Made by a program: the position numbers. Shown in pieces: positions 42,001-47,074 of a DNA stretch of 64,000 bases. Each line of letters begins with the position of its first letter. Positions within the stretch are counted from its first letter, which is position 1. The DNA is taken from NCBI RefSeq assembly GCF_988243305.1, contig NZ_OZ547136.1; one strand, given 5' to 3'.

Positions 42001-45000
42001 GTGCTGGCGCTTTCAGCCGTTACCGGCGGGGCGATAGGCCTGTTGTTCGAAAACGTGTTGATGGTGCTGCTCAAGCCCGTTCTGCCTGCTGCACTACCGC
42101 CAGCCAGCCTCTGGCCGTGGCTGTGGGCGCTGGGCACCATGACAGTCATCTCGCTGCTGGTGGGGCTACGACCGTACCGCTTGTTGCTGGCAACGCAGCC
42201 TTTACGCGTATTGCGTAATGATGTGGTCGCGAACGTCTGGCCGCTGAAGTTTTATCTGCCGATTGTCAGTGTGGTGGTTGTGCTGCTGCTCGCCGGATTA
42301 ATGGGTGGCAGTATGCTGCTCTGGGCGGTGCTGGCGGGCGCGGTAGTGCTGGCTTTGCTGTGCGGTGTGCTGGGCTGGATGCTGCTGAATGTACTTCGCC
42401 GCATGACGCTGAAATCGCTACCTCTGCGCCTGGCGGTTAGCCGCCTGTTACGTCAGCCGTGGTCAACGTTAAGCCAGCTTTCGGCATTTTCGCTCTCCTT
42501 TATGCTGCTGGCGCTATTGCTGGTATTGCGTGGCGATCTGCTCGACCGCTGGCAACAGCAGCTACCGCCAGAAAGCCCGAACTACTTTTTAATCAACATC
42601 GCCACAGAACAGGTTACGCCGCTAAAAACGTTCCTCGCGGAACATCAGATAGTCCCGGAATCATTTTATCCGGTGGTGCGGGCGCGACTGACGGCGATTA
42701 ACGACAAGCCGACAGAAGGCAATGAAGATGAGGCGCTTAACCGCGAACTCAATCTTACCTGGCAAAATACGCGGCCCGATCATAATCCGATTGTCGCCGG
42801 TAACTGGCCGCCAAAAGCCGATGAAGTGTCGATGGAAGAGGGGCTGGCGAAACGCTTAAACGTTGCCCTCGGCGATACCGTGACTTTTATGGGCGATACC
42901 CAGGAGTTCCGCGCTAAAGTGACCAGCCTGCGCAAAGTGGACTGGGAAAGTCTGCGGCCTAATTTCTATTTTATTTTCCCGGAAGGGGCATTAGACGGGC
43001 AACCGCAGAGCAGGCTTACCAGTTTCCGCTGGGAGAATGGCAACGGCATGTTGACGCAACTCAACCGCCAGTTCCCGACCATTAGCCTGTTAGACATTGG
43101 CGCGATTTTAAAACAGGTCGGCCAGGTGCTGGAGCAGGTAAGTCGGGCGCTGGAGGTGATGGTGGTGCTGGTCACCGCCTGCGGTATGTTGCTGTTGCTG
43201 GCACAGGTGCAGGTGGGAATGCGTCAGCGCCATCAGGAGCTGGTGGTGTGGCGCACACTCGGTGCGGGGAAAAAACTGCTGCGCACCACGTTGTGGTGTG
43301 AGTTCGCCATGCTCGGGTTTGTTTCTGGCCTGGTGGCCGCAATTGGTGCGGAAACGGCGCTGGCAGTGTTGCAGGCGAAAGTGTTTGATTTCCCGTGGGA
43401 GCCAGACTGGCGATTGTGGATTGTGCTGCCGTGCAGCGGTGCACTGCTGCTGTCGCTTTTCGGCGGCTGGCTGGGCGCGCGGCTGGTTAAGGGTAAGGCG
43501 CTGTTCAGGCAGTTTGCGGGGTGATGTGATAAAGCCGTTTATTTCTACCTGGTAGATAAACGGCTTCATTATTAGTGCATCACGTAATTAAAAAATTGTT
43601 ATGCCCAAACATATAATTAATATACATTGCCAAATGAGTTGTTTATTAAGTTTATATTATATAATTAAAATCTATGGAATGGGTATAATCATATGGGTGA
43701 CATTATATATTTACGCATTACAGGGGAGCAACAAGGGGATATTTCTGCAGGATGCGGGACGCAAGCCTCTGTCGGGAATCGGTATCAACAGGGACATGAG
43801 GATGAAATATTTGTTTTTAGTTTTCATGGAGGAGTAAGTAACACAGGATTTGGCATTAATCATCAAACGATACAATTTTGTAAAATTCTCGATAAAAGCT
43901 CACCGCTGCTGATGAATTGCATTAATAATAACGAACGATGCCGTTTTGAGTTTTATTTTTATCGTATTAATAAATATGGAAAATGGGAAAGGTATTATTA
44001 TATTGAAGTCCGTGGTGCCACGTTAACTCAGAATCAGATTATAATAAAAGAAAATGAACTTGACTATCAATATATAACAATACACTACGAATATATCTAC
44101 TGTAAGCATCTTACAGCCAATACAGAATTTAGTTATTTACTCACACCTGAAAATTATAATCGCCTTTTCCCACCGACGCTCTTACCTGTTGAGGAAAAAC
44201 CAGAAATACCGCCTGAACGAGAAATTATCCTCACCATTGGTGTATTCTTTGATGGCACAGGAAACAATTTAACCAATACGAATTTACGTATGAGTTTTTT
44301 CCAACCAGAAACCTATGGTCTGGATGTCCAGGATTTGGCCTCGTTTAATAAACAATGTATGAGCAAGCAGGGTAAAACGGGATCCGGAGTACAGAGCTAT
44401 TTGAATTACTATACGAATATTCATTGGTTGAATGAGTTGTATCATAAAGATTCAGAAATAAATGCGGGGTCAGTAAAAATTCAACGTGAAATTTATATTG
44501 AAGGAATAGGGACTGAAAATAATAAAGCAGACTCTCTGATAGGAATGGGGTTAGGAAATAATGATACAGGGGTAATTGCCAAAACTGACCGTGCGATATC
44601 ACTGCTCCGTGAAAAACTGACGGAGATTGTTATTTCTTTAAAAGAGAATAAATTAGTAATTAAGTGTCTACAGTTTGACGTATTTGGCTTTAGTCGTGGG
44701 GCAGCAGCCGCACGGCACTTTACTAATCGCGTATTTGAGTGTGATCCCGTACTGATTAAAACCATTACGACGGCATTTCAGTCAGTTGAATATTTAGGTA
44801 AACCTTCCGGGGAAGTGCAATTTTTAGGTATTTTTGACACAGTTGCAGCCATCGGAGGGCTGATGGATGGTTTTGACCCTCATGATGGTAATAACTTTCC
44901 GGTAAAAGTGAAGTTACCGCCAGGTGTGGCCAAACATGTATTCCAGCTCACAGCAATGAACGAATGTCGCTATAACTTTTGCCTCAACAGCATAAAGGAA

Positions 45001-47074
45001 AGCTGGCCAGAATTAAGTTTCCCTGGATCTCATGCTGATATTGGTGGCGGCTATGACCCACTGGAAGATGAGTACCTGTTTTTAAGTCGCCCGGCGATTG
45101 CAACGGTACTGGGAAATGTGCCGGTGGAAGCGACAAGCGCTTACCAAAAAGCAGCACAGCAGGCAGAGTTATTGTGGCGCTATTCGACGCTGGCTCCGAT
45201 TCTGCCTTCTGGTGTCCTAAAAATTGAATCCAATATTGATGAAATAGCGTCGCCTGACCACTTAGGTAATGTGAGAAAACGGGTCGCTGCAGCGGTGACA
45301 TTTCGCAGAACGATCACCAATGACTGGTCAAAGATTGCGTTAAGAGTAATGTATGAAGTCGCTAAAGAGGCAGGGGTAGTATTTGATGCCATTTCTGTTG
45401 CTGATAAGGAATTAAAAGTTCCCAGTCATTTAAAGGTAATATGTGAAAAAGCAATTTCTCAGGGTAAAGCCGTTCTCTTGTGTACAGCGCCGATACCTTT
45501 TTCTGATGATGAGCTTAAAACCATTGGAAAATATATACACTGCTCTTCCAACTGGAATACCGTCGATTATCGATTAAAAAATAAGGTGTCTGCTGAAGTA
45601 TCAGCGTTTAAGACGTTTAGTTTTGTTAATCGGCCGGATGAAAATTGGACCAGAACTATATACGATATGCAAGGGAATAAACAAAATGGAATTTAATATA
45701 AAATTACTGTTTGTTATTACGTCTATGGTTCTTAACTTTAACGCAGCAGCGAAAGAAAAAATATCGTTGCTTGCACCCTATGATGAGTGGTATTTCAATT
45801 TTTTCTACCCTGATTCCCTACCAGCAAAAGTTACCTATGTGGAATTATTAGATACCGATGGCATCTATTATCAGTTCAGAACGCTGGCCAGTACTAATGC
45901 CAGTCCAGGAAGTGTTGGACAATGGAGCGAGAAAGTATCAGGGATGTCGTCAGTTTTTAATAAAGCCAAAAACCCACCAATGTCTATCCATTTTTGCTGG
46001 GATTCAGTGATTGATAAAAAAGTGTATGAAACCTGGATAACGCTGGCGGGAGACGTCTGGAAATTGATGCTCACACCTTATTCACCACCAGGCGATGGCA
46101 GTGAAAAATATTATCTACAGTATCTGTTAATCGGACTGGCTCCGGAAGGAAAAGTACGGGTATGGCTTGATAAACGTGACAAACCCAATATTCGCCTGAC
46201 GGATAAGCAGATTCTGATAGAAACGTTTTCAGGTGAAAAAATGGAAATGTGTAAAGGAATTTCCCGGCATGATTTTTCTCTTGGAGACGATGAATATGTT
46301 CTTGAGTTTATCAAAGATAAAAAATATCCCTATGGTAACTGGTAAGTAACAATGAAAATAATAGCTAAAATAATTTATAGATTAACCATTGCGTTAATGA
46401 TAGCCGGATCAGTCCAGACAGCAGCGAAAGAAAAAATATCGTTGCTTGCACCCTATGATGAGTGGTATTTCCTTTTTTTCTACCCTAATGCGCTACCGGC
46501 ACGAGTTACCTATGTAGAACTATTGGACACTGATGGTATCTATTATCAGTTCAGAACGCTGGATGCTACCGCTCCGAGTTCCACAACTATTGATCAATGG
46601 AGAGATAATCTTCGGGTTGGGGTGTTATCATTCAATAAAGCTAAAAATCCCCCTATGTCTATCCATTTCTGCTGGGATTCAGTGATTGATAAAAAAGTGT
46701 ATGAAACCTGGATCACGCTGGCGGGAAAAGTCTGGAAATTGATGCTAACACCTTATTCACCACCAGGTGGTGGCAGTGAAAAGTATTATCTGCGGTATCT
46801 GTTAATCGGGCTGGCTCCGGAAGGGAAAATAGGAGTGTGGCTGGAGAAACCTGATAAACCCAATATTCGCCTGACCGATAAGCAGATTCTGATAGAAACG
46901 GTTTCAGGTGAAAAAATGGAAATGTGTAAAGGCCGAAGTGTCTATAAAAATGGGTATTCTTACCCGGAAAGTACAAAAAACTTTATCAAAGATAAAAAAT
47001 ATCCCTATGGCAACTGGTAGTTAACCAGTTGCACAATTTCTTAAAGAGGCACGGAAAAGCATTTTTGTGGGTTA

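Follow-up and report, generated by a model that had tools for sequence, protein, structure and literature searches.

The DNA analysed here is a 64,000-nucleotide stretch (the window) of contig NZ_OZ547136.1 in RefSeq assembly GCF_988243305.1, and the whole of it is collinear with Escherichia coli Z1323HEC0462, from copA through fdrA. Our subject is a module of three genes on the plus strand of the window, between ybbP and selU (also known as mnmH). The first gene, hcp-tle1 (43693..45696), is a fusion gene of the Hcp-ET2 class. It is an open reading frame (ORF) of 667 amino acids (aa) and 75 kDa with an ATG start, in which a domain of Hcp, the tube protein in type VI secretion systems (T6SS), is followed by a region of the Tle1 phospholipase family. 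The assignment comes from the ORF itself, a RefSeq coding sequence, TIGR03344, Pfam and a sequence search of the Protein Data Bank (PDB), and the frame and start are those of the RefSeq annotation in the syntenic region of Z1323HEC0462. A preliminary description made from the sequence had proposed this ORF and quoted its motifs, all of which we recover by script or by alignment. Two genes of the DUF2931/Tli1 family follow, here called immunity gene 1 (45686..46345) and immunity gene 2 (46352..47020).

The toxin gene and the two genes behind it

The Hcp/TssD domain lies at 43693..44142 on the plus strand (aa 1-150, 17.7 kDa). The NCBIfam TssD/Hcp profile TIGR03344 scores 125.3 bits on residues 1-149, where its curated cut-off is 58.9, and is matched over profile positions 1-163 of 167, while PF05638 (T6SS_HCP) covers the domain with model positions 1-128 of 129 (E value 2e-12). 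A phmmer search of the PDB matches residues 3-120 to the Hcp crystal structures 3he1 and 6a2v. When an AlphaFold2 (AF2) model of the product is compared with the PDB by Foldseek, template-modelling (TM) scores normalised to the target are 0.78-0.88 for Hcp chains of 6a2v and 3he1. The per-residue confidence of the model (pLDDT) is about 76-92 for most of residues 1-160 and falls to 55-62 near residues 21-30 and 51-60. The N-terminus of the ORF is a complete Hcp/TssD domain, as the preliminary description had it, and sequence and model together give it the beta-barrel fold predicted for an Hcp; assembly into hexameric rings or a tube and secretion by a T6SS are predictions. Its identity to each of the two Hcps that the T6SS cluster of Z1323HEC0462 encodes is 35-36%.

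A proline-rich linker (44143..44208, plus strand; aa 151-172) joins this domain to the lipase. It was recognised from its sequence, which reads TPENYNRLFPPTLLPVEEKPEIPPE over residues 151-175 and has six prolines among those 25 residues, and from a pLDDT below 50 at residues 163-174. The alignment of the product with stand-alone Tle1 proteins starts near residue 144.

The rest of the protein is a complete Tle1-type (DUF2235) phospholipase region of about 55 kDa (44209..45675, plus strand; aa 173-661), identified by phmmer, Foldseek and PF09994. In the phmmer search of the PDB, residues 173-661 match residues 30-541 of the 560 in Tle1 of enteroaggregative E. coli (EAEC; 6sjl_D) in one continuous match (E value 6e-123), and the identity to this protein (6SJL) is 47.5% over 488 aligned positions. 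Foldseek with the AF2 model retrieves another chain of the same structure (6sjl_E; E value 3e-40, TM 0.72), and many Hcp structures come next. The Pfam match is partial, since PF09994 is matched over model positions 169-272 of 287 (E value 4e-10) and the N-terminal part of the model is matched at an E value of 3. The sequence FFDGTGNN stands at residues 185-192.

The catalytic residues were placed by counting by hand along the phmmer alignment. Ser334 (codon AGT, 44692..44694), the predicted nucleophile, lies in GFSRG (residues 332-336) and aligns with S197 of 6sjl; Asp382 (44836..44838) lies in FLGIFD (377-382), the FxGxxD motif, and aligns with D245; His447 (45031..45033) lies in ELSFPGSHADIG (440-451), the ExxxPGxxxDIG motif, and aligns with H310. 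All three codons are on the plus strand. Residues 197, 245 and 310 of 6sjl are reportedly the catalytic triad of EAEC Tle1 (work of Flaugnatti et al.). Ser334, Asp382 and His447 are invariant across 57 homologs, down to 45% identity. Work on Tle1 of Vibrio cholerae (Tle1Vc) defined the three motifs GxSxG, FxGxxD and ExxxPGxxxDIG for Tle1 proteins, and mutation of the serine or of either aspartate led to loss of toxicity and lipase activity (PMC10395195); the hcp-tle1 product has all three. As judged from the alignments, residues 173-661 are a full alpha/beta-hydrolase of the Tle1 family with an intact triad, for which phospholipase activity and toxicity in the periplasm are predicted. This agrees with the lipase and the triad that the preliminary description had read from the motifs.

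The same description had allowed for a second functional domain in the C-terminal 210 or so residues, and on this point it has to be corrected. Residues 460-661 align with EAEC Tle1, within the continuous match of residues 173-661, and also with stand-alone Tle1 homologs of about 520 aa (P0096 and P0117), which include a region equal to this one. The C-terminal stretch is therefore the rest of the Tle1 fold. In Tle1 of Pseudomonas aeruginosa the non-catalytic part has been reported to be a membrane-anchoring module.

The two genes behind the toxin gene are both on the plus strand and both match PF11153: immunity gene 1 encodes 219 aa (E value 2.9e-27; also a RefSeq coding sequence) and immunity gene 2 encodes 222 aa (E value 1.5e-26). 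They are 71% identical to one another and form a tandem duplication with a period of 675 nt. The start of immunity gene 1 overlaps the stop of hcp-tle1 by 11 nt, and this placement of the start inside the end of the toxin gene suggests translational coupling of the two. Immunity gene 1 has a predicted Sec signal peptide at aa 1-22 (MEFNIKLLFVITSMVLNFNAAA|K) with an AAA|K site and without a lipobox; immunity gene 2 has one at aa 1-25 (MKIIAKIIYRLTIALMIAGSVQTAA|K) with a TAA|K site, provided that the ATG at 46352 is used. By a heuristic reading both proteins have a basic N-region, AxA-like sites and a hydrophobic core, with Kyte-Doolittle values of 2.75 and 2.06. Neither has a cysteine among its first 35 residues, so they should not be lipoproteins as EAEC Tli1 is, and we read both as predicted Sec-exported soluble periplasmic proteins, as had been expected of the two paralogs.

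The start of immunity gene 2 is annotated differently between genomes. RefSeq places it at 46397 in two of them (207 aa, without the signal peptide) and at 46352 in a third (222 aa). We favour the upstream ATG at 46352 because it matches the paralog and because a periplasmic role is expected. Searches of NCBIfam, PADLOC and the PDB with both immunity proteins returned no match, and no solved structure of an immunity protein was found among them. PADLOC had no match for any of the three proteins of the module, so we set aside the idea of an anti-phage defence system. It is important to realize that DUF2931 proteins are Tle1 immunity proteins by experiment, in Aeromonas and Vibrio (PMC10395195) as well as in EAEC. 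In Aeromonas hydrophila, with Tli1 and Tli2, protection required both copies. Tle1 of P. aeruginosa is a further case with DUF2931 immunity, and the work on it cites a second immunity copy in EAEC. The two downstream genes of the module belong to the Tli1 immunity family, and from this membership they are predicted to bind and neutralise the Tle1 domain.

The ybbP-selU site, the carriers and their alleles

The module lies on a low-GC island without K-12 homology (43534..47090) between ybbP and selU/mnmH, delimited by blastn against K-12, the K-12 annotation and GC content. Homology to K-12 ends at 43533, nine bases past the ybbP stop, and restarts at 47091, within the last codons of mnmH/selU. 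The GC content is 39.2% in 43534-47090, compared with 56.5% and 52.2% in the two flanks. About six codons at the end of mnmH/selU (47072-47090, minus strand) differ from those of K-12, and the ORF is 368 aa long, where that of K-12 has 364. The preliminary description gave the module as 43525..47071, which stands as a span from one intergenic region to the other; the island as measured against K-12 is the longer one given above, and it takes in those last mnmH codons. The AT-rich character of the region and its position at the place of rhsD-ybbC had been rightly seen. The 3.56-kb island stands in place of the 7.3-kb K-12 interval rhsD-ybbC-ylbH-ybbD-ylbI-ylbG. No blastn match was obtained between 43534-47090 and the K-12 rhsD interval, and no Rhs family was among the Pfam and NCBIfam results for the module.

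A mobile-element origin was considered and rejected. No insertion sequence (IS) element, integrase, tRNA or flanking direct repeats were found, and all 573 copies of the gene described below are chromosomal, with none on a plasmid.

Three possible signals accompany the genes, all on the plus strand. An inverted repeat, ATAAAGCCGTTTAT / ATAAACGGCTTCAT (43529..43569), found by a repeat search just past the ybbP stop, could be the stem of the ybbP terminator; the terminator scan gave no report of it. A consensus scan found a candidate sigma-70-like promoter, TTAAAA-18-TATAAT (10/12), at 43588..43617, 76 nt upstream of the hcp-tle1 start, and a candidate terminator-like hairpin, GCAACTGGTAGTTAACCAGTTGC (47010..47032), which overlaps the stop of immunity gene 2 and would serve between the module and the convergent mnmH. 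Matches of the promoter and terminator scans were no more numerous in the region than in shuffled sequence, so these sites are candidates only.

The gene hcp-tle1 is present in 573 of 5426 complete E. coli genomes, as a single chromosomal copy of full length in every one of them, and 569 complete E. coli genomes have the complete module plus its flanks. By blastn it occupies one place per genome and is of a single locus type. Many of the carriers are isolates of sequence type 131 (ST131), and the carriers are largely human extraintestinal isolates. In RefSeq the toxin goes under "tssD" or "Hcp family T6SS effector", and each of the two genes behind it under "DUF2931 family protein".

Protein searches find the Hcp plus PF09994 architecture outside E. 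coli too, across the Enterobacteriaceae: in Salmonella, Enterobacter, Kluyvera, Atlantibacter, Lelliottia, Cedecea and others. An Hcp-Tle1 gene whose product has 61% identity lies with one DUF2931 gene between ybbP and selU in Salmonella enterica subsp. houtenae (GCA_016640935.1, L012 8001-10663). That locus has an additional gene upstream, for a protein of 377 aa without a Pfam match. In Enterobacter hormaechei the module is at another site, far from any T6SS cluster and adjoining a gene of the inositol-phosphatase family, which we take to be suhB. The Salmonella and Enterobacter loci thus lead us to the view that Hcp-Tle1 cassettes are typically orphan and that the ybbP-selU site is used in two genera.

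The allele in the window is a rare one. Z1323HEC0462 is the only complete genome that has it (99.8% over 3.8 kb), and the others are at about 96%. Across the 2-kb hcp-tle1 gene the sole difference from Z1323HEC0462 is at residue 203 (44299-44301), which is Phe (TTC) in the window and Cys in all three alleles compared. Sliding mismatch counts and amino-acid differences mark out a hypervariable Tle1 stretch (44446..44667, plus strand; aa 252-266 and 308-325). The window toxin differs from two common-type alleles, those of ST131 and of isolate AF40, at 35-36 residues, mostly within these two segments, and at aa 252-266 it differs from them at 13 of 15 positions. The columns of both segments are also the least conserved in the family alignment. 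Over the 421 nt of 44300-44720, a single one of the 573 carriers is at least 99% identical to the window, 19 are at 90-95% and 553 are at 80-90%. The patch in the window resembles distant homologs (P0003 and P0017) more than it does the common E. coli version.

In immunity gene 2, too, the differences between strains come in blocks: aa 72-93 (46565-46630) set the window apart from the ST131 allele and aa 195-210 (46934-46981) from the AF40 allele. The second of these blocks in AF40 reads as immunity gene 1 does, and this points to gene conversion between the two paralogs. With as few as three alleles compared, no clean pattern of co-variation between the toxin patch and the variable immunity blocks is seen. 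Together, the rare version of the Tle1 surface patch and the variable blocks in the second DUF2931 gene may define a separate toxin-immunity specificity group, an idea that in our opinion is rather doubtful. If it is true, mutual killing could occur between strains that have the window allele and strains that have the common ST131-type one, and the paralogous immunity genes would be a recombining store of specificities. The rare hypervariable patch, the block-wise differences in immunity gene 2 and the Salmonella homolog at ybbP-selU are minor new points.

Function, delivery and rival readings

Very probably, we believe, the module belongs to the published Hcp-ET2/ETi2 class and is an orphan operon for an antibacterial T6SS effector and its immunity. 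The Hcp-Tle1 class is known already and routinely annotated, and the module is not a discovery. From the literature on the family, the Hcp domain would let the fusion join the Hcp tube of a T6SS from another locus, either inside the tube or at its end, and contraction of the sheath would expel it into a neighbouring Gram-negative cell. There the Tle1 domain, working from the periplasm, would hydrolyse the phospholipids of the membrane. Binding of the lipase by the two DUF2931 proteins in the periplasm would protect the producer and its kin. Compared with EAEC, the delivery handle would have been exchanged and the toxin kept, because Hcp and the linker stand at the place of the first 29 or so residues of EAEC Tle1, which we take to serve VgrG loading. 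The module would then be one weapon deciding competition of strain against strain among gut E. coli.

Such an operon has to be fired by a T6SS encoded at another locus, as the preliminary description also held, since annotation and searches agree that the 64-kb window has no other T6SS gene. The nearest complete genome, Z1323HEC0462 (NZ_CP148331.1, L006 8460-43661), has at tRNA-Asp, at a distance of about 350 kb, a complete 32-kb cluster. This cluster comprises tssB, tssC, tssE, tssF, tssG, tagH, tssJ, tssK, tssL, tssH, vasI, tssA, tssM and a gene for a VasL protein, and further two hcp and two vgrG genes, a PAAR gene, and DUF4123 and DUF2169 adaptors. None of these T6SS genes is flagged as a pseudogene.

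Several points weigh against the interpretation as an effector operon. We infer the T6SS of the window strain from one relative, Z1323HEC0462. In the one ST131 carrier inspected (NZ_OX637961.1, L009 46211-46287) the tRNA-Asp site is empty, and for ST131 clade C the literature describes the sole T6SS as inactivated through an ISEc12 insertion in tssM (PMC10711316; PMC12282107). Together these suggest that the toxin may not be deliverable in many carriers, and in part of the carrier population an intact toxin gene may at present have no means of delivery. The AF2 model, which was built on a homolog alignment, is of moderate confidence, with a mean pLDDT of 67. Finally, Howard et al. found that a 30-kDa protein added to Hcp cargo arrested sheath assembly, so a 55-kDa covalent extension in a tube with a narrow lumen is a mechanistic puzzle. 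To fit the domain, the fusion might form mixed rings, sit at the end of the tube or unfold in part. The puzzle of passing 55 kDa on an Hcp through the T6SS tube is shared by the whole class and is not specific to the window.

The points about ST131 lead to the rival that survives best. It holds that the module is kept mainly for defence, with the DUF2931 genes acting against competitors armed with Hcp-Tle1 or Tle1, and that the toxin is a passenger that cannot be delivered, either for want of a working T6SS or because none accepts this Hcp. The lack of T6SS genes in the window fits this, as does the fact that the module is intact in ST131 despite the empty site and the reported inactivation. 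The immunity gene is duplicated and differs in blocks between strains, as expected if immunity is under selection. However, every one of the 573 carriers has the toxin ORF at full length, the triad is invariant, the nearest genome has a complete T6SS, and Hcp-ET2 is described in reviews as killing in a T6SS-dependent way. Because the tssM insertion in ST131 is recent, little can be concluded from the intactness of the toxin gene in that lineage. We consider retention for defence unlikely. That the gene stays intact in ST131, whose clade C has reportedly lost T6SS function, is a small point that may interest specialists.

The remaining rivals can be treated briefly. That the product is primarily a structural tube subunit with a non-toxic C-terminal extension (an adaptor or a plug) agrees with its RefSeq name, 'type VI secretion system tube protein TssD', and with the completeness of the Hcp domain, but what extends the Hcp domain is an entire Tle1 lipase, complete in its catalytic motifs, with two genes of the Tle1 immunity family behind it, and the T6SS cluster of the nearest genome already has two canonical Hcps, which leaves this reading very little credit. 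That the effector is mainly a virulence factor against eukaryotic host membranes and not against bacteria finds some backing in a review table that gives EAEC Tle1 both prokaryotic and eukaryotic targets and in the human extraintestinal origin of most carriers; a pair of genes for exported proteins of the cognate immunity type is, however, the hallmark of an effector that acts on bacteria, within the periplasm, and a review lists Hcp-ET2 with a prokaryotic target, so we find it highly improbable. A dual role, against bacteria and host, could still exist besides the antibacterial one.

Two further observations concern the genomes used above. In Z1323HEC0462 the interval between dinB and yafL holds a Flag-2 lateral flagellar cluster that is complete (NZ_CP148331.1, L005 11918-50000). 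What the ST131 genome NZ_OX637961.1 (L009) has of the Flag-2 cluster is lafU and a fragment of flhA.

The window contains other loci of interest. A type I secretion system (T1SS) locus for a giant adhesin extends over 6502-32081 (plus strand) between ybaT and cueR, where siiEA is annotated in the syntenic genome. It consists of a gene for a TolC-family outer-membrane protein (6502..7857), an ORF of 6925 aa (7966..28743) that matches the BapA-related adhesin SiiEA and has Ca-stabilised tandem repeats and a C-terminal T1SS signal, an LssB-type ABC exporter (28747..30909) and an HlyD adaptor (30906..32081), all on the plus strand. Between cueR and ybbJ lies an ORF of 338 aa (33165-34181, minus strand) for a YadA-family autotransporter adhesin. 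Its C-terminus alone weakly matches the EmaA autotransporter model (23.9 bits, where the cut-off is 3000), and the copy in the syntenic genome is flanked by hypothetical genes. Rfam finds two RNAs above their gathering scores: the sRNA STnc480 at 60043-60109 on the plus strand (84.9 bits) and the nucleoid-associated RNA naRNA4 at 34968-35045 on the minus strand (71.9 bits).

Comparison with known systems

The K-12 rhsD-ybbC locus is a polymorphic toxin cassette at the same ybbP-selU site. The two have no sequence homology, and Rhs is a YD-repeat shell toxin without an Hcp fusion. The site has an Rhs cassette or an Hcp-Tle1 cassette in E. coli, and a homologous cassette in Salmonella.

Other toxins are known on the C-terminus of Hcp. 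Hcp-ET1 (an HNH-DNase) and Hcp-ET3/4 (pyocin S3/colicin DNase) resemble the window module in this, in being encoded at an orphan locus, and in having downstream immunity that is sometimes duplicated. They are small nucleases that act in the cytoplasm, whereas the window toxin is predicted to be a 55-kDa lipase acting on membranes.

The lipase itself is shared with systems that deliver it in other ways. In the Aeromonas hydrophila system Tle1AH-Tli1/Tli2 and the Vibrio cholerae system Tle1Vc-Tli1 a DUF2235 lipase with the GxSxG, FxGxxD and ExxxPGxxxDIG motifs is toxic in the periplasm and has one to three DUF2931 immunity genes downstream, but delivery is by DUF4123 adaptors and VgrG and there is no Hcp fusion. 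The EAEC Tle1-Tli1 pair (PDB 6SJL/6SKI; Flaugnatti et al. 2016, 2020) agrees with the window module in the triad positions, the C-terminal region and the downstream DUF2931 immunity, of which EAEC has a second copy. EAEC Tle1 differs in being a separate cargo on a C-terminal extension of VgrG, encoded inside the T6SS-1 cluster, whereas the window operon is an orphan. Where EAEC Tle1 has its first 29 or so residues, the window protein has a covalently fused Hcp and linker. EAEC Tli1 is an outer-membrane lipoprotein, and the window immunity proteins have no lipobox cysteine.

The closest likeness is to Hcp-ET2/ETi2. Howard et al. mapped specialised Hcps of the DUF2235 type. According to Ma et al. 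2017 (Virulence 8:1189), as that work is represented in the reviews PMC6730261 and PMC6099711, Hcp-ET2 of enterotoxigenic E. coli (ETEC) PE321 combines Hcp with DUF2235 and gives T6SS-dependent antagonism between bacteria by means of a Tle1 phospholipase, with ETi2 as its immunity protein. Both systems are found in E. coli away from the T6SS core, with one ORF that has Hcp at its N-terminus and DUF2235/Tle1 at its C-terminus and with Tli1-type immunity downstream. The window module differs in having two immunity paralogs, and its likeness to the PE321 protein (A31K_02346) is one of architecture. Because complete E. coli genomes have a single locus type, the window gene is likely to be an ortholog of PE321 Hcp-ET2.

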